The notes under the pieces were generated by a model, which ran no database searches, had not been told where the DNA came from, and was given only the letters and a program-made list of their open reading frames with translations. Both the position numbers and the translations under genes were made by a program. Positions 14,702 through 62,889 of a DNA stretch of 64,000 nt are shown in pieces; within the stretch, counting starts at the first letter, position 1, and each line of letters begins with the position of its first letter. Origin of the DNA: an uncultured virus (IMG/VR IMGVR_UViG_3300042465_006498) (taxonomy: Duplodnaviria > Heunggongvirae > Uroviricota > Caudoviricetes); IMG/VR virus record IMGVR_UViG_3300042465_006498. The stretch is one strand, 5' to 3'.

Positions 14702-15387
14702 AAAATATCATACCTGTATTTGTGGGCTACGACCCTAGAGAAGCGGTTGCATATCACACTTGTGTAAACAGTATCATACGCAACAGTTCACAACCTGTGG
14801 CCATTGTGCCTGTGGCCTTGAATCTGTTCCGAGACTACGCAGAAACACACACAGACGGATCAAACCATTTTATCTACACACGCTTTCTTGTGCCATATCT
14901 GATGGAGTACACTGGGCATGCTATTTTTATTGACGGTGACATGATTGTGCGTGGAGACATTGCAGAACTCTGGAACTTGCGAGATGTGTACAAAGATGTA
15001 CAAGTGGTCAAACATGACTACAAAACATGTATGCCTGTGAAATACCTAGGAGCAAAAAATGAAGACTATCCTCGAAAAAATTGGAGTAGTGTTATTCTGT
15101 GGAATTGTAATAGCTTTCCTAACAGGCGACTTACTCCCGAGTTCGTCCAACGAAGCACCGGTAGTGAGCTCCACCGCTTCTCGTGGATAGAAAATGAACG
15201 CATTGGCGAATTACCGCCAGAATGGAACTGGTTACCAGATGAATACGGGCCAAATACCAACGCCAAGTTACTGCATTACACACTTGGTACGCCATGCTTT
15301 CAGGAGTTTGCCGACACGCCACAAGGCAACGAGTGGCACCGGGAACGCATACTCACCGAATATTGTCAACAACGTAATATAGAATGA
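14698..15387 (+). CDS. GT-A glycosyltransferase (GT8-like)
   Basis: VGYDPRE, FIYTRFLVP, IDGDM (DxD), NWSSV, EWNWL, LHYTLG. Confidence 0.8.
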   Translation: MKNIIPVFVGYDPREAVAYHTCVNSIIRNSSQPVAIVPVALNLFRDYAETHTDGSNHFIYTRFLVPYLMEYTGHAIFIDGDMIVRGDIAELWNLRDVYKDVQVVKHDYKTCMPVKYLGAKNEDYPRKNWSSVILWNCNSFPNRRLTPEFVQRSTGSELHRFSWIENERIGELPPEWNWLPDEYGPNTNAKLLHYTLGTPCFQEFADTPQGNEWHRERILTEYCQQRNIE

Positions 15388-17286: not shown

Positions 17287-17867
17287 ACAAACAAACAACA
17301 AAAGCATCCAGGCGAGTCGTATATTGTAGACATATTGAGACGAAAGTGATTGCGATATCCCAGGCGGTTAAATATTTCTATCCAATCTTGATCAGTTTTA
17401 CAGTTGATATGAGTGGGATCACGTCGTGATATTTCTAGATGAAACTGGTCAGGTTGTTCCTCAACCGCACATGGTATTCTAACCAATATCTTGTCAAGGT
17501 TAAGTTGGTCAAACAATTCAATTATTTGTTGATCGGTCATGTGTTCAAGCACGTCTAAGAAAATGCCCAGGTCAAATGTTCCCCGGGCGTGATCTAGTAT
17601 GTTGCATCCGGCAAGGCGGGCCTGTATCACAGCCCAGTCTGATATGTCATAGCCCGATACATTTTTGAATCCAATTTTTTCAAATCCCTTGATCAAGAAT
17701 CCCAGGCTGCATCCATAGTCTAAAATTTTTGATTCAGAATCAACCAGACTGAATTTATGAAATACTTGTTGTATTTCTTCAGCAGTTTTTACATATCTTT
17801 CACGTTTGGAAAAATAATCCACATAATTGTTGGTCCGATAGTACTGCTCGTCAAACACCTGCGTCAT
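17283..17867 (-). CDS. Class I SAM-dependent methyltransferase
   Basis: ILDYGCSLG, GYDIS, DVLEH. Confidence 0.85.
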   Translation of the reverse strand: MTQVFDEQYYRTNNYVDYFSKRERYVKTAEEIQQVFHKFSLVDSESKILDYGCSLGFLIKGFEKIGFKNVSGYDISDWAVIQARLAGCNILDHARGTFDLGIFLDVLEHMTDQQIIELFDQLNLDKILVRIPCAVEEQPDQFHLEISRRDPTHINCKTDQDWIEIFNRLGYRNHFRLNMSTIYDSPGCFCCLFV

Positions 17868-18967
17868 GGAAAATTCCGATCAGGCATTTGTTGTGCAACC
17901 GTATGTAAAATTTTATTATTGAATTTGTAGTAGCAGTACTTGCAACTGTTGGTCCAGTTCTGCCCACAATTATTTTTTACCTCGTATGGATAACCTCGAG
18001 TGGCGTAGTTTTCACTGAGTTTTTGCCACGTGGGAATAATGTTATCTACATCACACAATGAGTAGTCTAAATCATAATTTTGTTTGTTCAACACATGACT
18101 GGTACAGGTGTACACTTGATATTTTCCAGTGCCGTGTGGATCTGGTGCCACGTATGGTCTAATCATGCCCACATAACAACCATCCTCAAACGGTGAATCG
18201 TCCTCACCAATGTCCTTGATAAAAATTTTATTTAAAGTATCAATTTCATCAATCACCTGTTTGAATTGAGTTCTAACTTGCGCATTGTTGCCTTTGATCA
18301 AACAGTTGCCTGCAATCCTGACAAATTTAAGATCAGGATGTAATTCTAGCACTCGAGCAATGCGTCGGATTGTCTCAACGTCAGTGGGTTTGTAGGGCTT
18401 GCCAAGTCTGTTGCCAGTTCCGGTATCGCCTTCGTATATGATGTATGACAGTCCCATTTTCTCAGCAGGAAATCCGCAGAAGTCAAAATCCTCAGGATCG
18501 TATCCTTCATCCAGTTTGATCAAACTGACTCGTATCCAGTTGATCTTGTCAAAATTTTCTGGTTTTAGTCTTGACAGTTTTAATGTATTTGTTATGATAC
18601 CAATGTCGTAGCCCAGTTCATGTGCATACTCAACAATGCTGTTGATATCATCTTTGGTATCCTTGTCACGGTAGATAAGTGGTTCACCACCACCAGTGAT
18701 TTCCACACTCTTGGCACCTAGAGTTCGAAAATCACGCAATACTTGTTTGATCTTTTCAAATGGCATGTAAGACTTCAGCGGACGTTCTGCCACACTACAA
18801 AACGGGCACCCACTGGAACAAACTTCACATGGCGATAGTTGAATTGTGATGGGTTTGAATTTCTTATCGTGTTGAATGCTGTGTAGCACGTCGGTGTGTT
18901 GCAACAGTTTGTCGCCCCAGGTGCTAAATTTTTGTGTCAGCACAATGTGTTTATTCTTGTCTTGCAT
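17864..18967 (-). CDS. Radical SAM protein with C-terminal SPASM/Twitch-like Cys
   Basis: CSSGCPFC, TGGGEP, IITN; C-terminal C...C...CKYC. Confidence 0.85.
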   Translation of the reverse strand: MQDKNKHIVLTQKFSTWGDKLLQHTDVLHSIQHDKKFKPITIQLSPCEVCSSGCPFCSVAERPLKSYMPFEKIKQVLRDFRTLGAKSVEITGGGEPLIYRDKDTKDDINSIVEYAHELGYDIGIITNTLKLSRLKPENFDKINWIRVSLIKLDEGYDPEDFDFCGFPAEKMGLSYIIYEGDTGTGNRLGKPYKPTDVETIRRIARVLELHPDLKFVRIAGNCLIKGNNAQVRTQFKQVIDEIDTLNKIFIKDIGEDDSPFEDGCYVGMIRPYVAPDPHGTGKYQVYTCTSHVLNKQNYDLDYSLCDVDNIIPTWQKLSENYATRGYPYEVKNNCGQNWTNSCKYCYYKFNNKILHTVAQQMPDRNFP

Positions 18968-19703
18968 GTTCTATTCCTTTTCCTGTGTGTGGGTTGGGTG
19001 ACTGTTTTGAAGTTGACATTTCCCCGATAATCTTTCGGCTTTTCATAACAGGATGTAATCTTGCCACAGATGGTATGCATACTTTCACATCCAGTACAAT
19101 TGTGCCCATTTGATTGTCGGTGGCACGAAATCCGTGTTCGTACACATAATCAATTAGTTTTTTTGCCCCTTGTGGTTTAATGATATAAGCATACACCCCG
19201 GTACTGTAAACTCCTGCATGTTTTTTACTCTTTAAGGCGTCACTATATCCAGTTAATTCTGGAATATCAATAATTGAATGAACAGTCACTGGTGCCGTCA
19301 ATTCTTTTTCTATTACAGCATCATAGCCGCCATTGGTTTTCATATAAGGACTAACACAGTCCAGTTTGCACACGTCATCAAATTGATCAAAAATATTTTC
19401 AGGGATTTCTCGCATGAGCCAACCGTCATGTTCCAACACAAGGTATGGTTCGTTATCTTTGACACAGGCCATCCACAAGTAAAAATGGCTTAGAAAGTTG
19501 CCATAGTGCCCCAGGGTCATTTTGCTTAGTTTTTGTTTGCCTAGTTTGATTTTGAGTTTTTTTAAATGTTGTTCGTAGTCTCGCCCCCAGATGGCTTCAA
19601 ATATTTCTACATTGATTCCAACCTTGGCTGCTTGCTCTCTACACTCAGCCGACAACTGTTCGGACATTTCGTGTCCTAACATAGTAATAATAAATGATTT
19701 CAT
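18951..19703 (-). CDS. Glycosyltransferase family 25-like
   Basis: FEAIWG, GNFLSHFYLW, LVLEHD, AYIIKPQGAKKL. Confidence 0.75.
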   Translation of the reverse strand: MKSFIITMLGHEMSEQLSAECREQAAKVGINVEIFEAIWGRDYEQHLKKLKIKLGKQKLSKMTLGHYGNFLSHFYLWMACVKDNEPYLVLEHDGWLMREIPENIFDQFDDVCKLDCVSPYMKTNGGYDAVIEKELTAPVTVHSIIDIPELTGYSDALKSKKHAGVYSTGVYAYIIKPQGAKKLIDYVYEHGFRATDNQMGTIVLDVKVCIPSVARLHPVMKSRKIIGEMSTSKQSPNPHTGKGIEHARQE

Positions 19704-20353
19704 CTGTAAATTGCCTCTACGTATTGGTATTTGTCAGTCCAGGAGTTGGGAATGTCGTTCCAGGTAGTATTTAACTGATCGTCTAGCCACCCAGGATAGT
19801 GCGAGCGATCTTTCCACCACCAAAACAGATCACTGCCACTCCAGTTCTTGAAATACCTGCGAAAGAACTCACGTGTTCTTGGCTCACGAAAATGTGCAGG
19901 ATCGTACATGGCTTTTTTGCCCTTGGCAGGACGTTGAAAATTCAAGCCGACAAAACAAAACTTATCAGCATATGATTCCAGTTGTTTTGCAACCCAATTC
20001 AGATCATCGTCTGGAATACTGTTTAGAACCTGTGTGCAAATAACACCGTCAAACTTTGTGCCTGCAGGAGGCGGCGTTTCCGATCCTGCCACACAAGGAT
20101 CATAGCGATACACACTAACACCCAGATAGGCATCAAACGTTTGCCAGTTGTGTTCTCCGGCATAGGGAAGAGGATCAGTGTATTGTTGACCTTTGCCGCA
20201 GCCATAATCCAGTATGGTTTGAGCACCATAGTGATCCACTAGATCCTTGATACAATTTTGATATTTGACCACATCATAGCCTGCCCAACTTTTATTGCTC
20301 TCCTGGAACTCACGACCTAGACGAACTGATTCTGCATAGTACGCACTTGTCAT
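19700..20353 (-). CDS. Class I SAM-dependent methyltransferase
   Basis: ILDYGCGKG, YDP, FDGVICTQVL. Confidence 0.8.
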   Translation of the reverse strand: MTSAYYAESVRLGREFQESNKSWAGYDVVKYQNCIKDLVDHYGAQTILDYGCGKGQQYTDPLPYAGEHNWQTFDAYLGVSVYRYDPCVAGSETPPPAGTKFDGVICTQVLNSIPDDDLNWVAKQLESYADKFCFVGLNFQRPAKGKKAMYDPAHFREPRTREFFRRYFKNWSGSDLFWWWKDRSHYPGWLDDQLNTTWNDIPNSWTDKYQYVEAIYR

Positions 20354-20976
20354 AGCAACTTTATCTCTACTGTCGCTCTTTTTTTACCACCGGCGTTTGA
20401 AACCACATTCACAATCTCAAAACCGTCTACGCCAATGAAATTGGTTGATGTGCCTTTGCATCTGATGTCCAGGATGATTCTGGTATTTTCATGCGAATGC
20501 CGTTTCATAAGATCTATGTAGGTTTTTACAGGATAGTGATGTCCGCAACTGAGCCATGATGTGATAACATCAAATTTTACGTCACTGGGTATGTTGATAT
20601 TGTTGGCATCAACAAGGTGATAATTTGTTGTACCTAGTTCTTGCAGTTTGGCATCCAAGAAATCAAATGTGTGATAAAACTTTAGTTCACCAGGGTCTGT
20701 GTTCCAGTTGCCGTAACTGGCAGACTCAGGTTTGCTAGCATTGGTGCTGGCATCGCCGTCCAGCAACCAAAGTTCTGTGCCATACTTTTGACCAAACCAT
20801 CTTGCATCCCAGGCAAAGCCGCAGCCAATGTCCAACAGTCGCCCTATAGGTTGATTCAAGTAAGCATCCACAGTTTCAAAGTTTACTCTGCGTTTGGCAA
20901 TGTATTTGTCAGTGGTCCACTTGCGTGACCATTGCGCCGAATCATGCGCTCCTTTGTCTGGATCTTCTATTGCCAT
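20350..20976 (-). CDS. Class I SAM-dependent methyltransferase
   Basis: LLDIGCG, FDVITS; start uncertain (20976 or 20988). Confidence 0.75.
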   Translation of the reverse strand: MAIEDPDKGAHDSAQWSRKWTTDKYIAKRRVNFETVDAYLNQPIGRLLDIGCGFAWDARWFGQKYGTELWLLDGDASTNASKPESASYGNWNTDPGELKFYHTFDFLDAKLQELGTTNYHLVDANNINIPSDVKFDVITSWLSCGHHYPVKTYIDLMKRHSHENTRIILDIRCKGTSTNFIGVDGFEIVNVVSNAGGKKRATVEIKLL

Positions 20977-21617
20977 CCCATGATCCAATCGTCACGCACT
21001 TGATCTAGTTTGACCATGCCCCAGTTTTTCAACAAGTCAACAGCCGCAAACTGGCCGTATTGTTTGCTGTAGGCATCATGTGGTTTTTGTTCTATTACCA
21101 CAACAGGTCTGCAACGTCGAATGGTTTGTTCTGCACCTTGCAGTATGCGATACTCATAGCCTTCGCAGTCAATTTTGATGTAGTTTATATCATGCAAGTT
21201 TAGATTGTCAAGCCGAACCACTTGCACATTGCCTACGCCCATGGTGTTGGGGTCAAGATGACTGTGCCCCGAATTGTCTTCGGTAATGATCATGGTTCCC
21301 ATTGTGTCCTGATCGCCCAGCGCAATGGGACGAACTTCAAAGTTTGCTCCTGTTACATTGCTTTCCAGACATTCTCTAAACACAGCAACAGGTTCAAAGG
21401 CTATCACACGGCCAAAACTTTTCACAAGATCACGACTCCATAAGCCCACATTGGCACCAATGTCCAGGGCCACATCTCGTCGGGTGCATAATTCAATGCT
21501 GCGTTGTCGCACAGCAATTTGATATTCAGCTGGTAGACCTTTGTCTACACTTTTCTTCAACATCCGTGGCAGGTGTGTTTCGAAGTCGGGAAATTGCCAT
21601 CCATAGTGTTCACGCAT
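20967..21617 (-). CDS. FkbM-family methyltransferase
   Basis: LDIGANVG, AFEP, IKIDCEGYE, RPVVVIE. Confidence 0.9.
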   Translation of the reverse strand: MREHYGWQFPDFETHLPRMLKKSVDKGLPAEYQIAVRQRSIELCTRRDVALDIGANVGLWSRDLVKSFGRVIAFEPVAVFRECLESNVTGANFEVRPIALGDQDTMGTMIITEDNSGHSHLDPNTMGVGNVQVVRLDNLNLHDINYIKIDCEGYEYRILQGAEQTIRRCRPVVVIEQKPHDAYSKQYGQFAAVDLLKNWGMVKLDQVRDDWIMGWQ

Positions 21618-22422
21618 TTGATAACTCCTTGGTTTGTGTTAGTATTCTAGCGGCTGTGCCATTGGCCAATTCATCAATGTGAAATTGACCATACGCAAGA
21701 TGACTGGTCCAGGCATATATTTCATCAGTGGTGGGATACCACGGATCTTCAATTTGACTCAGGTCCGTGTTGCTTACAGGTTGGGCAGCATTGCTGGGTG
21801 CCAACACAAACGTTGGTACACCAGTCAGTATGCTTTCTGTTGCGGCTACACTGTTGAACACAACCACTGCATGCACATCATCTTGAATGCGTTGTGCAAA
21901 TGTGTTGTTGGCTCGGAATCTAGGATCAGGATTGCGATCTCTAATGTAAACTGGGCGATCAGTGTATTTTTCTATTTCGGCCTTGGTATTGGCCAACCAT
22001 TGAGCCAGTTCGATGTTGTAAAACACACATGGTTTAGCGTCAGGTGCAGCAATTATGATGGCCTTGCCGTGACGGCGCCGAGGCATGTCTATGCCAAAAC
22101 GTTCCCATCTATCTCCGGGCCGCCGGACCACTGCGCCGTGTTGTAGATTGTTGTCCACTATTCTGTGCCAGTGTTTCCATCCACTGGGATTGGCTGCGCT
22201 GGGTTTGTTACCAAAGTAACCTGAATCAATGTATCTAAACTGTCGATCATCAGCCCAGCATTGTTTGATCAGTTTGTGTTTCATGATACCCCGTATTACC
22301 AAGGGATTGGAATCCTGTGAGTAGTCCCAGGTTTCTAGTACAGTGGGCCGAGCACCTGACCCATGTGCAAACATGTTGACGTATTCGTCTGTTCCGCGTT
22401 TACTGAGATAAGTCCAGGTCAT
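21610..22422 (-). CDS. Putative GT-B glycosyltransferase, paralogue of 15384-16370
   Basis: IDSGYF, RPGDR, FNSVAATESILTGVP, LAYGQF..E..NG; ATGA overlap gives start 22422. Confidence 0.55.
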   Translation of the reverse strand: MTWTYLSKRGTDEYVNMFAHGSGARPTVLETWDYSQDSNPLVIRGIMKHKLIKQCWADDRQFRYIDSGYFGNKPSAANPSGWKHWHRIVDNNLQHGAVVRRPGDRWERFGIDMPRRRHGKAIIIAAPDAKPCVFYNIELAQWLANTKAEIEKYTDRPVYIRDRNPDPRFRANNTFAQRIQDDVHAVVVFNSVAATESILTGVPTFVLAPSNAAQPVSNTDLSQIEDPWYPTTDEIYAWTSHLAYGQFHIDELANGTAARILTQTKELSNA

Positions 22423-23222
22423 TGCCAATAAGTTTCTTTTCGTTGTACCACAAGATCACTTCTTCTACTGCGGCCTTGGTCTTTGCGAGCACCTTTGAGA
22501 TGATCAATGTAGGTGCCCCATTCGCAATTGATCAGTGGGTGTCCTTCACCAGTGATCAACCCTTGGCTCCAGTTCAATTCATGCATGAGAAACTTTACCC
22601 TCACTGCATCAAATACAAAACTGTCGTGCCATTCTTTCAGAGTAAAAATTCCGTTTTCAGCATCATCGTACATGCGTTGAAACTCTGTTAAAAATTCTTG
22701 AGCAACAGGAGAAGTCAAATGCATGCCGTACAATCCGCATTCGGTAAATTTGTTGGCCCGCCCAGCATAGCAAAGGTCCGCAGAATCAGGAAAGAACTGT
22801 TCAAGTTTTGATGTGTTGATGGTGTTGTGACACACCATGTCTGCATCCATCCAAATTAACCATTCAGTGCCGCAGTTACGAGCAGCATGAAACACAGCAT
22901 ACACCTTGTGCGCAAATCGCACAGCATTCCATTTGAATCCTTTGCCTGCATCTTTGCGTTTGCTGCGTACTGGGTCAGCGCCAACATCGCCATTGGCGCG
23001 GGGCACATGACCCCAGACTCTTTTGAATTCAACCAGTTCGGGACTGGCCTGTGCCAAATTGACTATTTTTAAATTTGGAGCCTGCTGCGCAATAGCAACA
23101 TCTTCGGCATACACCAGCAACTGCACATCCTGAGGCCACGTGGACAAAAATGTATCTATCATGCGACTGCCGTATTGTTTATAACCACTGGCATTAAATG
23201 TGGTAACTACAGAGTATTTCAT
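22419..23222 (-). CDS. GT-A glycosyltransferase (nucleotide-diphospho-sugar transferase)
   Basis: RFAHKVYA, WMDADM (DxD), ECG, WHDSFVF, HLKG. Confidence 0.7.
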   Translation of the reverse strand: MKYSVVTTFNASGYKQYGSRMIDTFLSTWPQDVQLLVYAEDVAIAQQAPNLKIVNLAQASPELVEFKRVWGHVPRANGDVGADPVRSKRKDAGKGFKWNAVRFAHKVYAVFHAARNCGTEWLIWMDADMVCHNTINTSKLEQFFPDSADLCYAGRANKFTECGLYGMHLTSPVAQEFLTEFQRMYDDAENGIFTLKEWHDSFVFDAVRVKFLMHELNWSQGLITGEGHPLINCEWGTYIDHLKGARKDQGRSRRSDLVVQRKETYWQ

Positions 23223-23233
23223 ATCAGATACTT

Positions 23234-24082
23234 ATGATCAAAAACATAGCCTATTTCCCTTTTCAGGTGGCACTCAATGGTCCACCTGTGTTAAATGCAG
23301 TACTGGATACCTTGCAGTCTGCTGGTATACAAACACAAGAAAATTCCTGGACCTCAGATGCTGCTGTGATTTGGAGTGTGCTGTGGAAAGGTCGCATGCA
23401 GGCCAATCAAGCAGTTTATCAGCGCTATCGTGAACAAAACAAACCAGTGATCATTATTGAAACAGGTGCCCTGTATCGTGGCAACACCTGGAAGATCTCA
23501 GTAAATCATGTGGATGCCACGGGCTATTATGGACATACTCAGAATCTTGATTTGGACCGTCCCAGGCGCCTGGGTGTAAGCCTGGCAGTAAATCTCAGTT
23601 CTAATCCTGTTGTGTTGATCACAGGTCAACACAACCGCAGCCACCAACTGGCCGGTGTGACACAAGAAGTCTGGATGTCTGACGTCATCGACAAGATTAG
23701 ATCTGTAACTGATCGTCCCATTCATGTGAGACCGCACCCACGTTGTGCACTTGATTGGAGCCAACTGCCCCGGGACATACATCGGGAGCAGCCCAAAAAA
23801 CTAGCTGGCACCTATGACAGTTTCAACATACGGTTTGATTATCACGCTGTGGTCAATTACAATTCGGGTCCAGGCATACAAGCTGCCATAGCCGGAGTTA
23901 GACCAATTGTTCATAAAACCAGTTTGGCACATCCTGTATCAATCGCAATAGACAACATAGATCAACCTTATGATCTTGACCGACACCAGTGGTTGACAGA
24001 GATTTGCCACACTGAATACACTCTTGACGAAATAAAACAAGCACTATGGCTAAAAAGAATCTTGCCCGCTTTGACGGCGTAA
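23234..24082 (+). CDS. Putative GT-B glycosyltransferase, capsule-biosynthesis-like
   Basis: IETG, VRPHP, YNSGPGIQAAIAGV. Confidence 0.55.
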   Translation: MIKNIAYFPFQVALNGPPVLNAVLDTLQSAGIQTQENSWTSDAAVIWSVLWKGRMQANQAVYQRYREQNKPVIIIETGALYRGNTWKISVNHVDATGYYGHTQNLDLDRPRRLGVSLAVNLSSNPVVLITGQHNRSHQLAGVTQEVWMSDVIDKIRSVTDRPIHVRPHPRCALDWSQLPRDIHREQPKKLAGTYDSFNIRFDYHAVVNYNSGPGIQAAIAGVRPIVHKTSLAHPVSIAIDNIDQPYDLDRHQWLTEICHTEYTLDEIKQALWLKRILPALTA

Positions 24083-24786
24083 TTGACTGTGCATGCGTGA
24101 TACACAGTTCAGGCTATGACTGGACCTATGTGGATCGACTGTACAACATGCTGAACCGACACTTGTCCGGCGGCATACGTATGCATGTGTATACTGAAGC
24201 CGATAGACCAGTTCCGGACCACATGATCAAACACACACTTACCGATTGGCCAGGCATTGCTGGACCACGACGCAGTTGGTGGTACAAATTACAGCTATTC
24301 AATCCTGAACATCATGCTGGTAATTTGTTGTATCTCGATCTTGACATGGTACTGGTTCGCAGTATTGACTGGGTGCGAGATCTTGATCCTGGCCAATTCT
24401 GGGCCATACGAGATTTTCATTATCTTCAGCGACCCCATGTGACCAAGATCAACAGCAGCATGATGTGGTTCAACGTGTCCGCCCACAGTCATGTGTGGCA
24501 GCAGTTTGCAGCCAGCGATATAGAAAAAACCAGTCGCAGATACCCAGGAGATCAAGATTATCTTGCACAGGTAATTGATCGACATCAGCAAAGATTTTTT
24601 GAAGATCGATATTTTCAAAGCTATCGCTGGCAATGCCTGGACGGTGGATTTGACTTCCAAAAACGCCTTTATCATGCCCCGGGCACTGGTGTTGCAGTTG
24701 CCGGAGATACTGCGGCCATTGTGTTCCATGGCCGCCCTAACCCACACGAAACACAGGACCCACTGATAGTTGAACATTGGCAGTGA
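24046..24786 (+). CDS. GT-A glycosyltransferase
   Basis: WWYKLQLF, YLDLDM (DxD), NSSMM, GDQDYL, FHGRPNP. Confidence 0.75.
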   Translation: MAKKNLARFDGVIDCACVIHSSGYDWTYVDRLYNMLNRHLSGGIRMHVYTEADRPVPDHMIKHTLTDWPGIAGPRRSWWYKLQLFNPEHHAGNLLYLDLDMVLVRSIDWVRDLDPGQFWAIRDFHYLQRPHVTKINSSMMWFNVSAHSHVWQQFAASDIEKTSRRYPGDQDYLAQVIDRHQQRFFEDRYFQSYRWQCLDGGFDFQKRLYHAPGTGVAVAGDTAAIVFHGRPNPHETQDPLIVEHWQ

Positions 24787-24890: not shown

Positions 24891-25778
24891 ATGAAGAAAT
24901 ATGCTTTAGTAATGGCCCTAGCATTGGCCGCATCCCTGGCGCAAGCCGACGTTGCTGTGTACGGTAAAGTACGCCAGTATTTGAATACCGACGCTGTTGG
25001 CACTGCCAGCGGTGTTACTGCGTTGACAAATGATACCAGTCGAATTGGTTTCCGTGCCAGTGAAAAGTTGGCCAATGGTTTCACCGCTGCTGCTGTTGTT
25101 GAAACCAGCGTGTTGGCCGATGCTCCGGGTGCTACAAGCCTGGGCGATCGCGAAAGCACAATTGGCTTGTCCAACAAAATGATTGGCGTGCGTATGGGTC
25201 GTGCATCACATGCATATGATTCTGTAATTGGTGCATTTAGCCCTGTGAATGATTTTGGTGCCAGCACCGGAACAACTCACACTCAGCCCACAAGCCGCAT
25301 TCAGAATGCTGTGTTTGGTGCTGTGAACGTGGGACCTGCTGCTGTTCGTTACGATCGTGGATTGTCCGAAGTTGCTGGCACTGATGACGTGCAAGCTACC
25401 AGTGTTGCTGCCACTTTTGGACCAGTTGCGGTTGGTGCTGCTCGCCACATCGGTTCTGGTAGTGACTACAACTCTGTTGGTGCTAGCTACAATGCAGGCA
25501 TTGCCACTGTGTACGGATTGTGGAGCGAGCAAAAAACTGCTGGTGCCACTGTCAACACTGGCAAGAGTGTAGGCGTTGCTGTTCCTGTAGCAGGAACTCC
25601 TGTCACAGTAAAAGGTTCGTATGGTCTCAACACCGCTGACACCAAGAGCTACAACGTGCAGACCACTTATGCATTCAGCAAAACAACATCTGCTCATGCT
25701 GTGTTCCGCAAGGACAATGCAGTTCTTGCAGCCAACGACCGCCAGCAATTTGGTGTTGGTTTAGAATACAATTTCTAA
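24891..25778 (+). CDS. Gram-negative outer-membrane porin (betaproteobacterial Omp32/Neisseria-porin type)
   Basis: Signal peptide ending AQA, VAVYG, SRIGFRASEKL, RESTIGL, amphipathic beta strands, C-terminal GVGLEYNF. Confidence 0.85.
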   Translation: MKKYALVMALALAASLAQADVAVYGKVRQYLNTDAVGTASGVTALTNDTSRIGFRASEKLANGFTAAAVVETSVLADAPGATSLGDRESTIGLSNKMIGVRMGRASHAYDSVIGAFSPVNDFGASTGTTHTQPTSRIQNAVFGAVNVGPAAVRYDRGLSEVAGTDDVQATSVAATFGPVAVGAARHIGSGSDYNSVGASYNAGIATVYGLWSEQKTAGATVNTGKSVGVAVPVAGTPVTVKGSYGLNTADTKSYNVQTTYAFSKTTSAHAVFRKDNAVLAANDRQQFGVGLEYNF

Positions 25779-34400: not shown

Positions 34401-34751
34401 ATGATTCAAGGAATAATACCCGGTACAGGGTTAGTAACCACAGGCGGCAGCTCTATGCAGCCGTATATAAGCCCAGGATCTCAGAGTGCTGGAATATTAC
34501 GGTACAATACAAGTTTAAAAAATATAGAAGTGTATGACGGTGTCAGCTGGCTAACGTTGTCCTGCAGCCATACTCAGATAAGTCTTGACGGTCCAACACA
34601 GGAAGCTGTCCAGTGGGTTCGTCGTCGAATGGAACAAGAAAAACGCCTAGAAGAGTTGGCCAGACAACATCCTGCTGTGGCCGATGCAGCAGCCGCAGTG
34701 GCACAGGCACAGGAACAACTGGACATAGTGACTGCACTGGTACAACAATGA
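34401..34751 (+). CDS. Hypothetical protein
   Basis: 116 aa; GILRYN...IEVYDG..W plus C-terminal coiled coil. Confidence 0.7.
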   Translation: MIQGIIPGTGLVTTGGSSMQPYISPGSQSAGILRYNTSLKNIEVYDGVSWLTLSCSHTQISLDGPTQEAVQWVRRRMEQEKRLEELARQHPAVADAAAAVAQAQEQLDIVTALVQQ

Positions 34752-35326
34752 GCGCAGACATTGACATTGACTTTGCTGACCGCGAACACATACTGAAATT
34801 GATTCAGCACACACCTGCACGGCAGATCACAGATGGAAGACCCAGACGTCACAATTCGGGTGTGTATGTCACTGATATTCCTTACGATCCTGTAAATCAG
34901 TGTGCAGCCATAGACTATGAGTCAGCAGAGGCTCGTGGTTACTTTAAAATTGACTTTTTGAACATGAGTGTGTATCAGTTGATTCGTGATCAAGCACATT
35001 ATGATCAATTGCTGGCGCAAGAGCCAAACTGGGCAAGATTATGGACTGATTCTGCCTGGGCCAGCCAACTGGTGCATGTGGGAAATTATACTGATTTGTT
35101 GCAACAAATGCGGCCGGACTCTATTGCAAGAATGGCAGCATTTATATCGGTTATTCGTCCGGGCAAAGCACACTTACAGGGTCAGCCCTGGGATCAAGTG
35201 TTCAAATCAGTCTGGGACGGTGACACCAGTCGGGGCTACACATTCAAGAAGAGTCACAGCCTAAGCTACGCAATGTTGGTTGCCTTGCACATGAGTTTGC
35301 TCAGTCAAGACGTCGAACCAGTGTGA
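34748..35326 (+). CDS. dnaE: Compact DNA polymerase III alpha (family C) catalytic-core ORF
   Basis: ADIDIDF, HNSGVY, FKIDFL, IRPG, FKKSHSLSYA in DnaE order within only 192 aa. Confidence 0.75.
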   Translation: MSADIDIDFADREHILKLIQHTPARQITDGRPRRHNSGVYVTDIPYDPVNQCAAIDYESAEARGYFKIDFLNMSVYQLIRDQAHYDQLLAQEPNWARLWTDSAWASQLVHVGNYTDLLQQMRPDSIARMAAFISVIRPGKAHLQGQPWDQVFKSVWDGDTSRGYTFKKSHSLSYAMLVALHMSLLSQDVEPV

Positions 35327-39236: not shown

Positions 39237-40325
39237 ATGATAAATCAATTTTGTAGATACTTATCCAATGGGTATTCGTTTCAAATTGGCAGAAACAATG
39301 AGGTTGGTGTTAACCCTTGTTGTCTTTACCAGCGTAAAGGGATATTGCTAGGTACGGATTTGTTGAAGGACAGACAGGAAAGATTAAACACAATAACAGA
39401 CTGGACTCCTGAATGTAACCGTTGCCGCGTATTAGAACAAGCTGGACAACAAAGTCTTAGACAAAGTGGCGTTGATTGGATTGACAACGATGAAACATCC
39501 CTTGATCCGGTCAGTATAGACATACATCTTGACAACGAGTGTAATGCAGCGTGTGTGATTTGCAAGAAAGAATCCAGCTCTTTGTGGCTCAAGGAAACTC
39601 AAAAACTCAACAATCAACCGGTAAAATTTCACAGTGATAAAACAATTGTTGATCAGTACATTGCCAAAATTGTAAAAGCTGTGTCCTTGGACAAAATTAA
39701 ATATATCAAATTTTTTGGCGGCGAACCACTATTTACAGACACACATCTTAGATTTTTAGAACATATTTCAAATCCTGGCCAGGTCACCTTGCACTACACA
39801 ACAAATGGGTCAATATATCCCAATGATGAAACCCTGGCAATGTGGCGCAACTTTAAAACAGTGATCTTTGCAGCCAGCATAGACGGAATAGAACAACAGT
39901 TTGATTATGTGCGTTGGCCTCTGCCCTGGAACAAAGTCAGTGACAATCTGTTGCGTATCAAACACAATCCAGACATTCGGAACGTGATGTTTAGAATTGA
40001 ATTCACAGTTAATTTTCTTAATGCCTATTATTTTGACCGCGTAGAAACATGGATCTCAGAAAATTTGGCCACAAACTACGGCGGTGGTAAAACAGAAATA
40101 AATGTTCATCCCTGTCATGGAATATGGGACCTAAACAAAATGTCTCCAGGTATTAGACATTTGATTTTGACAAAATACCCTAGCACTCACGTGATACACA
40201 AAATGATTAGCAATTTGCCGCAGACGTTGACCTTGCATGAATGGCGAGATTTTGTTGCCACCTGGGATTCAAGGCGTAACAACAGCTGGAAAACAGCATT
40301 TCCGGACCTGGTAGATTTGATTTAA
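39237..40325 (+). CDS. Radical SAM protein with N-terminal SPASM/Twitch-like domain
   Basis: FCRY...PCC...CNRC, then CNAACVIC, GGEPL, YTTNG, SIDG. Confidence 0.85.
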   Translation: MINQFCRYLSNGYSFQIGRNNEVGVNPCCLYQRKGILLGTDLLKDRQERLNTITDWTPECNRCRVLEQAGQQSLRQSGVDWIDNDETSLDPVSIDIHLDNECNAACVICKKESSSLWLKETQKLNNQPVKFHSDKTIVDQYIAKIVKAVSLDKIKYIKFFGGEPLFTDTHLRFLEHISNPGQVTLHYTTNGSIYPNDETLAMWRNFKTVIFAASIDGIEQQFDYVRWPLPWNKVSDNLLRIKHNPDIRNVMFRIEFTVNFLNAYYFDRVETWISENLATNYGGGKTEINVHPCHGIWDLNKMSPGIRHLILTKYPSTHVIHKMISNLPQTLTLHEWRDFVATWDSRRNNSWKTAFPDLVDLI

Positions 40326-41265: not shown

Positions 41266-41334
41266 TGATTGTGTCCTCGTTGTAGATATTTATTCCCAAA
41301 GGGTCTGCGCTAAATAATACAAAGGTCCGCCGAA

Positions 41335-41583
41335 ATGCAAAAAAAGACACGCAGTATACTAGAAGAACTGGACACGTTGTATGTAGAACGTGATCGCCGT
41401 TTGTTGATTGAAAATCGTGCCAGCAACTTGATTGATTCTGCCATACGATTACTGGAGCAGATTGAATTGGAGTATTCAACTGAGCAAGCGGACAATCTCA
41501 CTAGAAAACTACTGAATGCCATTCGCACTCGAGATTCTGGTAAATTTTCAAGATCTGTCAGGAGAACACATGCAGATTCATGA
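41335..41583 (+). CDS. Small hypothetical protein, probably head-related
   Basis: 82 aa after TAAATA 41311-41316. Confidence 0.7.
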   Translation: MQKKTRSILEELDTLYVERDRRLLIENRASNLIDSAIRLLEQIELEYSTEQADNLTRKLLNAIRTRDSGKFSRSVRRTHADS

Positions 41584-42628
41584 AATTACCCTGCGACTGA
41601 ATGAAAACGCTCTAGGAGCATTTGGGGCAGGATTTGCACAAGGTGCTGGTATCAGTGTGCCTGACACAGGCGATGCAGGAGGTACTGTGACCTCTGCGTA
41701 TGGAGATGCCAGACAAAAAGCAGCGGCCCAGCAAGCTCGTCCACTAATTGCTCAAGCAGCCAAACAAGAAATGCAGGCCTGGAACGTGGCCATTGCTGAC
41801 ATGCTCAAAAAAGAAAAAGTGCTAGACCGCAAGGAATTATCTCCGGCATCCAGGAGTGAACTTGCGAGAGATCTTGATGTTAGATTACACAAGGTGTTGA
41901 TGAAGGGATCTGTTGGCACTGATTACACACAAGGGTTGCCTGCCAACGTGGATGAATTGTCCCAGCCCAAAGCAAAAGTCTTGGTTGATCGCTTGACCGC
42001 GGCCAAGCAAGACATTTTGAATTTTGATCAGCCAACCACAGCACAGCAACGACTGGCACAATGGCAAGCTCTGAGTCAAACTGCCTATGACGCTATGTCT
42101 TTGACACAATTTTACCCGGACAAACGTCGCATGATGTCTGGAACCATGCCCAAGATAGTGGCAAATCCTGGCGGCGGCTACAACATTGGATCTTATAAAT
42201 TAACAGGCGACCGTGTGGACCAGTTGATTATTCAAAAAATACAAGCAGAACTGAAGACAAATCCCAAGGCAGACCCTCAACTGATTCAACTGAAAGCAAA
42301 TAGAGACGGATCAATCAACATTGGTGCACAGCGGCTGGACCCTAGAAATACTGATGAAGCCATGGCAATTGAAAGAATAGAATCTGCAATGGGCAGCTCT
42401 GCACCTGCTGCACCTGCTGCACCTGCTGCACCTGCTGCACCTGCTGCACCTGCTGCACCTGCTGCCGCTGCTGCCGCTGCTCCTGCTGCCGCTGCCGGCG
42501 CAACACCAACTTCTAACCCAGCATCATTCAATGCTCAAAACATAATGAACTTGCGGCCAACACCTGGATCTGTAACACCGGGTAAACAACTAACAAGAAC
42601 AGCGACCGCAGAAAGCAAACGCAGATGA
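41570..42628 (+). CDS. Hypothetical protein with N-terminal MQIHEI tag and Ala-Pro repeat
   Basis: AGGAG RBS before ATG 41570. Confidence 0.7.
   Translation: MQIHEITLRLNENALGAFGAGFAQGAGISVPDTGDAGGTVTSAYGDARQKAAAQQARPLIAQAAKQEMQAWNVAIADMLKKEKVLDRKELSPASRSELARDLDVRLHKVLMKGSVGTDYTQGLPANVDELSQPKAKVLVDRLTAAKQDILNFDQPTTAQQRLAQWQALSQTAYDAMSLTQFYPDKRRMMSGTMPKIVANPGGGYNIGSYKLTGDRVDQLIIQKIQAELKTNPKADPQLIQLKANRDGSINIGAQRLDPRNTDEAMAIERIESAMGSSAPAAPAAPAAPAAPAAPAAPAAAAAAAPAAAAGATPTSNPASFNAQNIMNLRPTPGSVTPGKQLTRTATAESKRR
42401..42463 (+). repeat. Perfect tandem repeat (GCACCTGCT)x7
   Basis: 63 bp encoding (APA)7, followed by degenerate Ala codons. Confidence 0.95.
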
Positions 42629-44532
42629 AACTACTAGAAGGCGGCAACGTATTCAAGGACGCTGCCGGCAATCCGGCCACCCAGCGTATCAATCAAGCAG
42701 ATGTGCCTGCTACCATTCGTTGGTTAGAAGGTGTACTGGGCATGCAGTTTCCACAGGATCGTTGGCTAGGCTCCACAGGCCGTGCTGCCACCTCAGGTGA
42801 TCTTGATCTAGCAGTGGATCTACAAGACACCACTAAAGATCAAATTGCAGCAGCACTCACACAGTTTGTGCAAAAGAGCGGTCAAGATCCTCGTGAGTGG
42901 GTCAAGAAAGGCGGCGAAGTGCACTTCAAGACTCCCATTGCCGGCAATGCTCGTAATGGCTTTGTGCAAACAGATTTTATGTTTTTTCCTAATGTGGACT
43001 GGGGTACATTTTTCTATGCCGGCGGCACAGACTCGGCCTATAAAGGCATGGTGCGCAACGTGCTAATGTCAAGCCTGGCCAAGCATCTGGGACTTCGAGT
43101 GGGCGCAAATGGCATGTTCAGCCGAACAACCAATCAACTGGTGCGAGATGGTCTTGATCCTGACTATGTGGCCCAGACTTTGCTGGGCGCAGGCCGAGGT
43201 CGTGATGATCTAAAAAATGTAGAAACCATTTATCAAAATCTAGCCCGTGATCCTGAACGTGATGCCAAGCTGAAAGATTTTCGTGAGTATTTGGCTCGAG
43301 AAGAACTTGCAGAACCTGACATGGGCGTGAAAGAAAGTGATGTGAATTTTCTGGCTCGCTTGAGAGATCGCATTGTGAATCAAGGCATGATGCCATTGGT
43401 TGAAGCACCAGACACAGTGCAAATGATTGCTGAAGCTGAAGCAGCCGGAGTAGGTGGCCGAGCCAAAGGAATTGAACACCTGGAAGATCTTGTGTTCCGT
43501 CGTGGCACACAAGGTATTCGGGATGCTCTGACCATTGTGCAACAGGCCATCGAGCAACCCAGCACAGTGACTGCCAAATGGGATGGCAAACCTGCTGTGA
43601 TATTTGGACGCAAGCCCGCTACAGGTGAGTTTGTGCTCACAGACGGATCAGGATTTGAAGCCAAAGGCTACGATGGCCTGGCCACAAGTCCCCAGATGAT
43701 GGCTGACATACAGAGCCGACGTTCAGGCGATCGCACAGAATTGATTCAGTTGTATGCTCAGTTGTTTCCTGTGTTGGAGGCAGCACTGCCCACAGGATTC
43801 CGTGGCTATGTCAAAGGAGACCTGTTGTACATGGACACTCCGCCTGCTGTGTCTGGCAACTATGTATTCCGTCCCAATACTATTGAATACAAAATTCCAG
43901 TTCAAAGTGCCTTGGGGCAGCGCATAGGCAACAGTACCATTGGCATTGCTATCCACAGCATGTACAGTGATCAGGGTGAACCACGTCAGCCCTTGCGTGG
44001 TGTGAGCTTTAATCCTGTGCCCGGACTCATGCTGGAACGTCCGGCAACTCCCAAACAACTTGAAGCTGAACCTGCCTTGGTCAAACAACTAAAAGCTCTG
44101 GTTCGGTCAGAAGGTGCTGCCATCAACACCTTGTTTAATCCTGCGGAACTGCGAGCCAACAAGATTACAGACCTGGCCAAACTGGCTGTGGATTTTATCA
44201 ACACCAAAGTAGGTGCGCCGCTGAATCCTGCTAGCCTGTTGTCTGAATTTGGAGACTGGCTACAGACCCGAGTTACACCGCAAAAGTTCCGTAACATTGT
44301 GGAATACCTACAGAGTCCCACCAGCAATACCAGTGCACTGGCAGCAGCGTTCACAGCATTTATATTGCTGCACGATCTCAAAATGGATCTGCTGCGTCAA
44401 GCAGATGCACAGCATCCTGGCCAAGAAGGCTGGGTAATGGCCACTCCTGCAGGCTATGCCAAGGCAGTGAACCGCTTTGACCCCAATGCTTTTGCTGCTC
44501 AAAATCGAGCACAAAACAATCCCAAATCATGA
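42625..44532 (+). CDS. Two-domain protein: Pol-beta-type nucleotidyltransferase plus KxDG ligase-like domain
   Basis: LGSTG....SGDLDLAV and VQTDFMF in the N-half; HLED...AKWDG.PA, KGDLLY, F.PNT, EGWV in the C-half. Confidence 0.6.
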   Translation: MKLLEGGNVFKDAAGNPATQRINQADVPATIRWLEGVLGMQFPQDRWLGSTGRAATSGDLDLAVDLQDTTKDQIAAALTQFVQKSGQDPREWVKKGGEVHFKTPIAGNARNGFVQTDFMFFPNVDWGTFFYAGGTDSAYKGMVRNVLMSSLAKHLGLRVGANGMFSRTTNQLVRDGLDPDYVAQTLLGAGRGRDDLKNVETIYQNLARDPERDAKLKDFREYLAREELAEPDMGVKESDVNFLARLRDRIVNQGMMPLVEAPDTVQMIAEAEAAGVGGRAKGIEHLEDLVFRRGTQGIRDALTIVQQAIEQPSTVTAKWDGKPAVIFGRKPATGEFVLTDGSGFEAKGYDGLATSPQMMADIQSRRSGDRTELIQLYAQLFPVLEAALPTGFRGYVKGDLLYMDTPPAVSGNYVFRPNTIEYKIPVQSALGQRIGNSTIGIAIHSMYSDQGEPRQPLRGVSFNPVPGLMLERPATPKQLEAEPALVKQLKALVRSEGAAINTLFNPAELRANKITDLAKLAVDFINTKVGAPLNPASLLSEFGDWLQTRVTPQKFRNIVEYLQSPTSNTSALAAAFTAFILLHDLKMDLLRQADAQHPGQEGWVMATPAGYAKAVNRFDPNAFAAQNRAQNNPKS

Positions 44533-44597
44533 TTTTTTTGGATCCGACATAAATAAAAGCAAGGCACACAGCCTATTAACTTAAAGGAAATTTTATC

Positions 44598-47510: not shown

Positions 47511-47897
47511 ATGGCATATTCAGAAAAAGTTGTAGACCACTACGAGAACCCACGCAATGTGGGTAGTTTCTCCAAAGAAGACACAGATGTGGGCACTGGT
47601 ATGGTTGGAGCGCCGGCGTGCGGTGATGTGATGAAGCTGCAAATTAAAGTTACTGACGGAGTAATCACAGATGCAAGATTTAAAACATACGGTTGCGGCA
47701 GCGCGATTGCGTCAAGTTCGCTTGTTACTGAATGGGTCAAAGGACGTACCCTTGAGCAGGCGGAAGCGATCAAAAATAGCGAAATTGCTACTGAGCTTGC
47801 CCTTCCCCCTGTTAAAATTCATTGTTCAATACTTGCAGAAGATGCCATCAAAGCGGCGGTAGCTGACTACAGGATCAAACATGATCTTGTTCACTGA
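47511..47897 (+). CDS. iscU: Fe-S cluster scaffold IscU
   Basis: YSEKVVDHYENPRNVG, GAPACGDVM, FKTYGCGSAIASSS, LPPVKIHC. Confidence 0.97.
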   Translation: MAYSEKVVDHYENPRNVGSFSKEDTDVGTGMVGAPACGDVMKLQIKVTDGVITDARFKTYGCGSAIASSSLVTEWVKGRTLEQAEAIKNSEIATELALPPVKIHCSILAEDAIKAAVADYRIKHDLVH

Positions 47898-48204
47898 CAC
47901 TGCCCGAAACAAAATCAAACGATTGTTAGAAAAACGCGGTGGCATAGGCATACGTCTAGCAGTAAAAACCACAGGGTGTTCGGGTCTGGCTTATGTGCTA
48001 GAATATGTCGATGCACACACCGGTGACAACAGTACCATAAATTATGCTCAGCCTGATTTTTCTGTGCTGGTGGACAAAAAACACGAAGTATATCTGGACG
48101 GCATGACTGTGGATTATGTTCGCCAAGGTCTCAATGAAGGATTTGAATTTTCAAATCCCAACGAACGTGATCGGTGTGGCTGCGGAGAAAGCTTTAGAAT
48201 CTAA
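47881..48204 (+). CDS. iscA: A-type Fe-S carrier IscA
   Basis: TTGCSGLAY, NPN...CGCGESF. Confidence 0.95.
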   Translation: MILFTDTARNKIKRLLEKRGGIGIRLAVKTTGCSGLAYVLEYVDAHTGDNSTINYAQPDFSVLVDKKHEVYLDGMTVDYVRQGLNEGFEFSNPNERDRCGCGESFRI

Positions 48205-54611: not shown

Positions 54612-55121
54612 ATGAAAATAAATGAACTGTTAGAAAGTGCAGATGACATAGAGTTGAAGGCAAAAACTCTTGCTGTTGATGCACACAAGAACCAAAAATA
54701 CGGTGTACACCCTTATGCCACCCATTTGGCGGATGTTGTTGCCCGTGTTAAAACAATTACACAAGACCCAGAAATAATTGCTGCTGCTTGGTTGCATGAT
54801 ATAGTGGAAGATACAGATGTCACATTGGAACAAATCAAACAACAATTTGGTGATAATGTTGCCAATATAGTTTGGGCAGTAACAGGCCGCGGAGAGAACC
54901 GAAAAGAAAAAATGGCAAATGCCATTGCTAAGATTGCTCAAACTCCAGGAAGTGAATTGGTAAAGAGTGCAGACCGATTGAGCAATGTTTCTGCCAGTTT
55001 ACCAAGTGGTTTAGCAAACAATCCAAAAAAACTTAAAATGTACCGAGATGAACACAAGGATTTGAGTCCAGTCTTGGGTAACAATGCATTGGCCCTAGAG
55101 CTAGTGGATTTATTCAAATAA
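54612..55121 (+). CDS. HD-domain hydrolase, SpoT/Mesh1 small alarmone hydrolase-like
   Basis: AH.NQ...PY..H, AAWLHDIVEDT, FG..VA.IV..VT, VKSADRLSN. Confidence 0.85.
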   Translation: MKINELLESADDIELKAKTLAVDAHKNQKYGVHPYATHLADVVARVKTITQDPEIIAAAWLHDIVEDTDVTLEQIKQQFGDNVANIVWAVTGRGENRKEKMANAIAKIAQTPGSELVKSADRLSNVSASLPSGLANNPKKLKMYRDEHKDLSPVLGNNALALELVDLFK

Positions 55122-61512: not shown

Positions 61513-62889
61513 ATGAATGACATCAATTTTTCCAACTCACGCTTTGATGGTCTAACCATGTCAGCCGACTGGATCCAAGATCTTGAAAGTTCCGACAGCC
61601 GATTGCACAAAGAAAAAGTAATCGAAAAAGCCCTGATGGCTGCAAAATTGGGCAGTGCCAGTGCTCAGGGCTTTTTGTTCAACGCTTATCAGGCCTACAA
61701 TCCCTTCCATGTGTTTGGTGTGCAACAAGTGTCTGAGACTACAGGCATCACTCATGCTCCAAACCCCTGGTCCACATTCTGGGCCCTGCTAGAAGATCTG
61801 CGTACTCGTACTATCACTGGCCATCGTGCTCGCGACCGTATCAAGGAAGTGTCCCAACTGTTTGACAGTGTGGAATGGAACACAGTTTGTCGACGTGTGC
61901 TGATCAAGGACCTAAGATGTGGTATTTCAGAAAAGACTCTGAACAAGGTGCTGGGCAAAACAGAATGGAAAATCCCTGTGTTCGGTGTGCAGCTGGCACA
62001 GGACTCAACTGATCAGCCCAAGAAAATGAAAGGCATCAAACGCCTGGAAGTCAAACTGGATGGTGTGCGTGTTATTGCAGTGGTGTCGGGCAGTAGCTGT
62101 GTGTTGTACAGCCGCAATGGCAAGGAGTTTGAAAACTTCCCACAAATTGCTGAGGCTGTCCTGGACAACCGTCGAGCTTTCCAATACGGCCGAGGAACAG
62201 GTGGCCACTTTGTGTTGGATGGTGAAATTGTAGGTGAGAATTTTCAAGCCTTGATGAAACAGGCACAACGCAAAAGCAATGCCAACACAACTGGCATGGT
62301 TTATCACATTTTTGATATTGTTCCGCTGGATGCACTCAAAGAAGGTCACTGCAATTTACAACAGCACAAGCGTATAGAATGGATTGAAAGTGCAAGATCC
62401 ATTCTTGACACCACTGATTGCTTGCGCATCATGCCAGGTATGAATGTGGACTTGGACACTGCTGAAGGACATGATGTCATGCAGCGTTTTGCCAGCGCCA
62501 GTGTGGAGCAAGGATATGAAGGCATCATGATCAAGAATCTTGACGCCCCGTACGAATGCAAGCGTAGTGACCACTGGATGAAATGGAAACCCACAATCAC
62601 AGTTGACCTGACCATTGTGGGTTTTGAAGAAGGAACTGGTCGCAATCAGGGCCGACTGGGTGCTATAATTTACGAAGGAGTTGACAATGAACGAAATATT
62701 CGGGTCAATGTTGGTACTGGCTATAGCGATAATGATCGTGATGAGTTTTGGGCTGCCAGGGATCAGTTACTTGGCGTCATTGGCGAAATCCAAGCTGATG
62801 CAGTTACTCAGAATCAAGACGGATCATTCAGTTTGAGATTTCCTCGACATGTTCGATTCCGTGGATTTGAAGCCGGAGAGAAACTGTAA
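61513..62889 (+). CDS. lig: ATP-dependent DNA ligase
   Basis: EVKLDGVR, SRNGK, LDGE, EGIMIK, KWKP, SLRFP. Confidence 0.93.
   Translation: MNDINFSNSRFDGLTMSADWIQDLESSDSRLHKEKVIEKALMAAKLGSASAQGFLFNAYQAYNPFHVFGVQQVSETTGITHAPNPWSTFWALLEDLRTRTITGHRARDRIKEVSQLFDSVEWNTVCRRVLIKDLRCGISEKTLNKVLGKTEWKIPVFGVQLAQDSTDQPKKMKGIKRLEVKLDGVRVIAVVSGSSCVLYSRNGKEFENFPQIAEAVLDNRRAFQYGRGTGGHFVLDGEIVGENFQALMKQAQRKSNANTTGMVYHIFDIVPLDALKEGHCNLQQHKRIEWIESARSILDTTDCLRIMPGMNVDLDTAEGHDVMQRFASASVEQGYEGIMIKNLDAPYECKRSDHWMKWKPTITVDLTIVGFEEGTGRNQGRLGAIIYEGVDNERNIRVNVGTGYSDNDRDEFWAARDQLLGVIGEIQADAVTQNQDGSFSLRFPRHVRFRGFEAGEKL

Follow-up and report, generated by a model that had tools for sequence, protein, structure and literature searches.

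In jumbo phages a Pol-beta-type enzyme, RlaP, travels with the RNA ligases Rnl1 and Rnl2 and, in the portion of the account available, is predicted to restore a lost nucleotide before RNA ligation; that portion does not describe the set as head-packaged (PMC7824862). PgVPolX of the giant Phaeocystis globosa virus 16T places a PolX-like core ahead of a ligase; it fills gaps in a templated manner, has lyase activity and carries an NAD+-dependent DNA ligase (PMC5537341). Alt, an ADP-ribosyltransferase of phage T4, shares with the T4 internal proteins a short leader ending in hydrophobic-x-Glu; gp21 cuts there, and the enzyme is ejected into the host; Alt is cut at ITE-6 and LTE-619 (PMC5694885). 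Here we analyse a gene in a 64,000-nucleotide stretch of DNA from an uncultured virus of the Caudoviricetes (IMG/VR record IMGVR_UViG_3300042465_006498), hereafter the window, whose 635-residue product is predicted to join a PolX-derived nucleotidyltransferase, through a linker, to a ligase-fold domain of the family DUF6267 (Table 1). We tentatively read this fusion as a packaged, protease-split kit that would add nucleotides to RNA ends without a template and seal them. Its add-and-seal logic would be that of RlaP with Rnl1 or Rnl2, built from different families, as neither domain is a member of those. Like PgVPolX, the fusion sets a PolX-like core ahead of a ligase; unlike it, the ligase domain is OB-less and the linker holds predicted cut sites. 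Cutting and ejection were measured for Alt, whereas for the fusion they are predicted.

The catalytic residues of a Pol-beta-type enzyme are present in the N-half and near-invariant. The first-pass annotation of this DNA had read them as GS-x7-DLD plus a distal Asp; the residues stand (G49-S50, D59-L60-D61 and D117), while the spacing is GS-x8-DLD, seven being the count to the Gly before the Asp. Among N-half domains of relatives, cut like all domains used for residue counts from the best 150 of 1,483 representatives at 50% identity, G49 is kept in 83/85, Ser or Thr at position 50 in 83/85, D59 in 84/85, D61 in 85/85 and D117 in 84/85. The predicted model (pLDDT 95, 58-row alignment) superposes on Pol beta with a Z-score of 10.6 and a root-mean-square deviation (rmsd) of 3.5 over 172 residues, and on PolX of African swine fever virus (ASFV) with Z 9.3 over 158 residues, and Foldseek returned Pol lambda at E 6e-5. 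Ten PolX chains align over 150-179 residues, covering palm and thumb, against about 85 residues, the core only, for CCA enzymes, TUTases, CD-NTases and OAS (Z 4.3-6.7). A profile comparison of the N-half family with 14 bacterial PolX proteins, taken from 15 loci fetched from genomes, gave a probability of 86% and E 5e-6 over 117 columns, with the three Asp residues aligned. The N-half has no Pfam family and no PolX Pfam match above threshold, and the RlaP model (PF10127) matched neither the fusion protein nor any of 22 family members at E 0.1. On the predicted model, then, the assignment to the Pol-beta superfamily made in the first pass is supported at the level of the fold, and the nearest relatives within it appear to be family X polymerases rather than the CCA-adding, cGAS-like or toxin enzymes that had been named.

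The N-half shares with ASFV PolX and other family X members a palm-thumb architecture, here without lyase and fingers domains, three catalytic Asp residues and the sequence SGD-x-D. It differs in its extra C-terminal helices, in a GG-N-x-F start behind a protease-type site, and in lacking FTGS, the template-side Arg and NEY. In PolX, FTGS, the template-contacting Arg and NEY read the templating base pair. None of FTGS, the Arg of the following helix and NEY is kept in the N-half alignment, where the aligned positions are variable. The position of the template-side Arg is S149 here and Ala, Asn or Ser in 78/85, although in so remote an alignment the register could shift by one turn and the conserved R144, one turn earlier, could substitute. 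Because these template-reading motifs are lost, template-free nucleotide addition is the simpler inference from the sequence. A more distant second Pol-beta-like domain, starting with GG after a Glu, lies behind the ligase domain in three representatives (P0138, P0191 and P0219), two of which hold both kinds.

The C-half matches DUF6267 (PF19782) with E 2.5e-30 and 106.5 bits, against a gathering cut-off of 27. This family matches 319 phage records, 307 of them named Synechococcus, Prochlorococcus or cyanophage; in the T4-like cyanophages, where it is known as T4-GC71, its neighbour or fusion partner is a HIGH 'cytidyltransferase', and no gene resembling PolX was detected. The KWDG, GD and EG motifs noted in the first pass are present and conserved, to which motif V and an IxHxED motif can be added. 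Among C-half domains of relatives, K318, D320 and G321 are each found in 104/105, D399 in 101/108, E601 in 102/102, K613 in 97/99 and R617 in 97/97, and KxDG is present in all 145 full-length fusion open reading frames from close loci. Where the wider family has Lys (101/107), 119/120 of the closest relatives share G341, a trait of the clade rather than damage. The predicted C-half model (pLDDT 94, 72-row alignment) is closest to Naegleria Rnl5 (Z 8.1, rmsd 3.9, 182 residues aligned), followed by Trl1 (Z 7.0), Rnl2 (6.8), REL1 (6.7), a DNA ligase (6.6) and, lower, NAD+ ligases (4.4-4.5). The first 32 of the best 50 structural rows are ligase, capping-enzyme or snurportin-type chains. A Z-score near 8 is middling when taken alone; since the superfamily is consistent among these matches and the motifs are conserved, we predict that the C-half is a domain, without an OB fold, of the covalent nucleotidyltransferase (ligase/capping) superfamily that the first-pass annotation had pointed to.

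OB-less RNA ligases (Naegleria Rnl5, T4 Rnl2 and Rnl1, REL1, Trl1) resemble the C-half over 170-195 residues (Z 6.6-8.1) and in motifs I, III, IV and V. The C-half differs from them in an Asp for Glu in motif III, in a helical insertion of about 110 residues ahead of motif IV and in having no Pfam RNA-ligase match, the Rnl1 (PF09511) and Rnl2 (PF09414) models giving none to the fusion protein at E 0.1. RNA-ligase motif V has a second Lys where the C-half has Val. After K613 only 22 residues remain, forming one helix, so that no OB domain follows motif V. DNA ligases, as far as is known, need an OB domain. For domain Ia, the OB domain, the Zn finger and the helix-hairpin-helix (HhH) of NAD+-dependent DNA ligases there is neither space nor a Pfam match in the C-half. 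In the viral library the first named matches outside the C-half family are RNA ligases, and links were found to a 446-residue protein of the Pseudomonas jumbo phage PA5oct (E 2.4e-6) and to a 324-residue Atu_ph07 protein named 'RNA ligase' (E 9e-3). Searching the solved structures by sequence returned nothing meaningful for the fusion protein, for either profile or for the HIGH domain, and NCBIfam and PADLOC held no match to the fusion. In the ESM Atlas the nearest clusters are unnamed and viral; the named ones, NTP_transf_2 (0.92, 33% of members), Pol beta palm (0.85) and RNA_ligase (0.77), serve as leads only. An ordinary ATP-dependent DNA ligase is encoded separately in the window, in 5/5 long relatives and in PA5oct; on that ground we rejected, for this clade, the idea that DUF6267 stands in for the replicative DNA ligase, although in cyanophages it may apply. 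Five partial relatives (41-75% complete) yielded no separate gene for Rnl1 or Rnl2; their PF09414 matches are the DNA ligase, and PF09511 lacked a positive control.

Sites of the form [ILVM]-x-E, resembling those of phage head proteases and called E-sites here, mark the boundaries between these parts. The first pass had picked out VKES, LVEA and IAEA in the linker; they correspond to sites at E237, E260 and E270, and the enrichment is real. All 45 scored linkers, drawn from the 58 representatives with this domain order of which the remainder failed length filters, contain E-sites, with 87 sites in total against 38.7 in composition shuffles and a density of 4.8 per 100 residues against 0.54 and 1.0 in the two cores. 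One further site, E385, lies inside the ligase core. The polymerase-like domains start with GG-[NKH]-x-F/W, preceded by [LIVF]-x-E in 75/78, directly by Met in 2 and by another sequence in 1; in Atu_ph07 and Phosso it is Met that directly precedes GG. A Glu-site leader and a direct Met thus look, from the sequences, like two routes to one mature start. Likewise, 108/111 ligase domains have an E-site at most 18 residues from their start, compared with 20% of control tiles.

The capsid proteins of two relatives, whose propeptide also bears E-sites, serve as an internal control: they have such sites at 7, 19, 34 and 42, the next being at 389, and the first four match PA5oct. The scaffolds of relatives hold 25-27 E-sites. 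Two of ten partial relatives searched have a capsid gene and encode a PA5oct-type head protease, their capsid proteins being 69-70% and their head proteases 55-56% identical to those of PA5oct. A gp21-type head protease was not found in this 23%-complete contig, and PF03420 gave no protease in five partial relatives, which also lack a capsid gene, so the head module is probably missing from these fragments. Together the sites lead us to infer that the head protease would cut after Glu5 and in the linker. By eye, a conserved peptide occupies residues 238-257 (window 43336-43395), between two E-sites, in about 14 of the 45 linkers; it also ends some polymerase-only entries, and no second copy turned up in this contig. 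The peptide might be a tag for binding the core that cutting would free.

Late expression of the fusion gene is suggested by its upstream sequence. TAAATA is the core of the T4 late promoter. It stands ahead of the operon in all 129 loci having 70 nt of upstream DNA, against 4.3% of random 70-nt windows, and is found again at most 70 nt from the fusion stop in 140/140 loci; counts of sigma-70 promoters and terminators were at chance level. Virion proteomes of cultured phages bear on packaging and give a mixed picture. The stand-alone polymerase-like protein EST35_0231 was detected in PA5oct virions with 6 peptides and 57% coverage (PMC7318152, Table S5), and its counterpart CDS 65 in Atu_ph07 virions with 10 peptides (PMC6102473, supplement). 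In a fusion, packaging of one half would carry the other half with it. The packaging proposed in the first pass is accordingly likely for this fusion on the motif and the two proteomes, while for the stand-alone ligase-like relatives three proteomes did not bear it out, as discussed below.

Domain partners of the two halves were surveyed in the 150 representatives. Both domains occur in 65, in this order in 58 and reversed in 7. A HIGH nucleotidyltransferase is fused in 28, of which 27 carry the ligase domain and 23 all three, and other cargo domains occur 1-5 times each. The HIGH domain is adjacent or fused to DUF6267 in cyanophages, and a HIGH gene lies elsewhere in the genome in 4/5 long relatives and in PA5oct, Atu_ph07 and Phosso; none was found in the flanks of any of the 159 closest loci or in the 78-kb contig. 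In PA5oct, Atu_ph07 and Phosso the ligase-like gene lies 1-3 genes upstream of a stand-alone polymerase-like gene, adjacent in Atu_ph07 and Phosso and three apart in PA5oct. Next after the polymerase-like gene, Atu_ph07 and Phosso have a conserved gene of helical appearance (L085 8773-9561, L086 8824-9501), with a look-alike, judged by eye, at L189 4215-5087. CDS 64 of Atu_ph07 is a virion protein (PMC6102473). Restriction-nuclease-looking genes (PD-(D/E)xK, by eye) adjoin the ligase-like gene in PA5oct, S-SM1, S-PM2 and Melnitz (L084 6647-7666, L083 5083-5916, L082 4869-5954, L081 7752-9512), too divergent to find each other. The one in S-SM1, T4-GC1453, is listed as a virion protein (PMC3037559).

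Under our favoured reading the fusion would be made late and loaded into the phage head, where the head protease would split it into a PolX-derived nucleotidyltransferase and an RNA-ligase-shaped enzyme. Both would enter the host with the genome; the first would add a nucleotide without a template to a broken RNA 3' end, and the OB-less ligase would seal the end via Lys318-AMP. The substrate may be host tRNA or rRNA that defence nucleases have cleaved, or a nick with an RNA end. Injection, adenylation of Lys318, cooperation of the halves and RNA as the substrate would all have to hold, and several results weigh against this reading. The main one, against a packaged pair in general, is that the ligase-like proteins EST35_0228 (PA5oct), CDS 66 (Atu_ph07) and T4-GC71 (S-SM1) are missing from the three virion lists, EST35_0228 despite its IAE5 leader. 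S-PM2, S-SM1 and Melnitz keep the ligase and HIGH genes with a polymerase-like gene in 0/3. No RNA-end-healing kinase or phosphatase lies beside the gene and no tRNA gene was found in the window; 2H and HAD domains are fused in just a handful of the 58 larger relatives scanned, amid many unrelated cargo domains. The nearest structures to the N-half are DNA polymerases, not RNA enzymes. For the C-half the ligase Z-scores are modest, with RNA and DNA ligases after the first row within 1 Z, and the Foldseek search that the first pass had called for gave no match in the Protein Data Bank at E <=0.001, the weak matches all being ligases (best E 0.01).

The same evidence could be read as a packaged DNA gap-filling and nick-sealing kit, in the manner of ASFV PolX with its ligase or of PgVPolX, that repairs or joins the phage genome once it has been injected and then cut by restriction or CRISPR, perhaps via a ribonucleotide added at the nick. 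The N-half does match PolX palm and thumb across the whole domain, a PolX-ligase fusion has a working precedent (PMC5537341), nuclease-looking genes stand beside the ligase gene in four cultured phages, with that of S-SM1 in the virion, and a PF01068 DNA ligase was not found in S-PM2 or S-SM1. We consider it rather unlikely given the template-reading motifs that are not kept, the missing OB domain, the canonical DNA ligases of this contig, the long relatives and PA5oct, and the 159 closest loci, in which single-sequence searches found no nuclease-like neighbour. A cascade of nucleotide transfer onto proteins or small molecules would instead give the centre to HIGH: it would make an activated, NAD+-like nucleotide, the ligase fold would pass the nucleoside monophosphate to a protein or metabolite of the host, with the PolX-derived domain as a third, optional writer; the purpose would be to take over the host or to blunt immunity based on nucleotide signals. 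HIGH is the steadiest companion of DUF6267 in the fusions, the cyanophages and the genomes named above, and is a virion protein in the lists for S-SM1 (PMC3037559, Table S8) and S-CREM2 (PMC10665884), whereas the PA5oct HIGH enzyme is not flagged as one. Fusions with Acb1, NT5C and ParB-like domains, additional ones among the larger relatives scanned, and the loss of the template motifs also fit the cascade. The HIGH domain's matches to nicotinamide mononucleotide (NMN) adenylyltransferases are weak, far under the cut-offs, and do not tell NMNAT apart from PPAT and the other adenylyltransferases; the NAD+-dependent ligases score lower than the rest, and HIGH is absent from the flanks of the 159 close loci and was not found in the 78-kb contig. 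To our knowledge, ligase-fold enzymes that act on proteins are not the rule, and we judge the cascade unlikely.

Finally, the fusion may do no more than bring both enzymes into the head: the two would have separate tasks, travel behind one leader and be cut apart. The cut sites do part the domains, either order is seen, unrelated cargo domains are numerous, three cultured phages keep the ligase without a polymerase-like gene, and one member of the pair alone was seen in the PA5oct and Atu_ph07 virion lists. Yet in distant phages the pair is found fused or side by side, even where the two are encoded separately, while any other cargo domain is found only the few times given above, and we regard unrelated jobs as improbable. 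Since S-PM2, S-SM1 and Melnitz lack a polymerase-like gene and HIGH recurs with the ligase, it looks as though ligase and HIGH form the core, with the PolX-like enzyme an addition.

Table 1 Features of the fusion gene and its surroundings, in window positions
Feature	Position	Strand	Basis
Operon's TAAATA, T4-late-promoter-like motif ahead of its first gene	41311..41316	+	T4 late-promoter consensus
Operon's first gene, 82 aa, PHROG 'virion structural protein' family	41335..41583	+	phrog_11854, E 5e-14
Unknown-family gene, 352 aa; its stop overlaps the fusion start; varies among relatives	41570..42628	+	
Fusion gene, 635 aa: PolX-derived nucleotidyltransferase, linker and DUF6267 ligase-fold domain (predicted)	42625..44532	+	ORF, Pfam, predicted models
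Five-residue leader with LLE5 at its end; predicted head-protease site exposing the conserved GG-N-x-F start	42625..42639	+	
PolX-like palm-thumb domain and C-terminal helical part (predicted), residues 6-232	42640..43320	+	
Catalytic D59, D61; D117	42799-42807; 42973-42975	+	
Linker; conserved peptide between the first two sites	43321..43461	+	
Predicted linker cut sites VKE237; LVE260; IAE270	43327-43335; 43396-43404; 43426-43434	+	
DUF6267 ligase-fold domain (predicted), residues 280-627, no OB domain	43462..44505	+	
IxHxED (I283-x-H285-x-E287-D288)	43471-43488	+	
Motif I KWDG (K318-W-D-G321)	43576-43587	+	
Motif III GD (G398-D399)	43816-43821	+	
Motif IV EG (E601-G602)	44425-44430	+	
Motif V K613-x-V-x-R617	44461-44475	+	
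TAAATA directly after the fusion stop, likely promoter of the next gene	44550..44555	+	
Separate canonical ATP-dependent DNA ligase with OB domain	61513..62889	+	PF01068 E 2e-20; PF14743 E 5e-7

The window covers the first 64 kb of a virus record of 78 kb whose completeness is estimated at 23%, which would put the genome at about 340 kb. Its gene order is that of PA5oct: primase, helicase, the 82-residue virion protein, the fusion, structural genes, exonuclease and ribonucleotide reductase. The ATG of the fusion overlaps the stop of the gene before it; the protein of that gene has an Ala-Pro-Ala repeat near its end (window 42390-42500) and appears, by eye, akin to domains that other phages fuse to one half of the protein or the other. 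The family is large: of 7,997 scored candidates, 3,959 are proteins of similar length, and 394 viral-contig stretches also belong to it. Within the 159 closest viral loci, a redundant set picked for similarity, the gene is fused in 154, split in 1 and cut by a contig end in 4. In one close relative (L017 983-2879, best segment 93%) it lies in two frames, from a frameshift or an assembly error. A cellular origin of the gene was rejected: a search of 185,579 species genomes gave only seven matches, every one on a contig assembled from metagenomes; six of these show the gene order of this phage, and the seventh is too short to judge.

Further genes of the window were noted in passing. A Gram-negative porin gene (24891-25778; Porin_4, E 1e-23) hints at a proteobacterial host and follows an apparent sugar- or glycan-modifying cluster (13922-24786) with a cytidylyltransferase-cupin fusion at its head, the remainder being judged by eye. 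IscU/NifU and IscA-like iron-sulphur cluster genes (47511-48204), conserved in relatives, lie within the structural region, and several radical-SAM-like genes are near them (for example 39237-40325). A short DNA polymerase III alpha-like piece (34673-35326; phrog_11778) fits the split minimal polymerase described for such jumbo phages (PMC7824862). An HD-domain gene (54612-55121; HD_4, E 9e-14) has a leader resembling that of the fusion and may encode a packaged nucleotide hydrolase.

We found no publication that uses the term DUF6267 or describes this pair in a search whose scope left out most subscription papers. The families are new but their folds are known, and PgVPolX offers a precedent for the architecture (PMC5537341). 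Hundreds of cyanophages in culture carry DUF6267, as do thousands of proteins from uncultured phages, and the family has no assigned function; the predicted ligase fold, the catalytic lysine and two recurring partners make this very common gene testable, and cultured stand-ins exist in PA5oct, which grows on laboratory Pseudomonas strains, S-PM2 and S-SM1. Useful enzymes could also come from a PolX offshoot that works without a template and from a new ligase family that lacks the OB domain. It is conceivable, if quite unlikely, that DUF6267, a near-core gene in T4-like phages of aquatic habitats, is the centre of an injected system built from three unrelated nucleotidyltransferase folds, namely ligase-like, HIGH and PolX-derived, each freed by the head protease with a defined new N-terminus. 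Such a system would form a new nucleotide relay that might, for example, make its own activated nucleotide and, only seconds after injection, write it onto the ends of RNA or onto proteins of the host so as to disarm immunity. If the fusion is indeed packaged and injected, it would supply the phage with a repair or counter-defence enzyme set that acts ahead of any phage gene expression.

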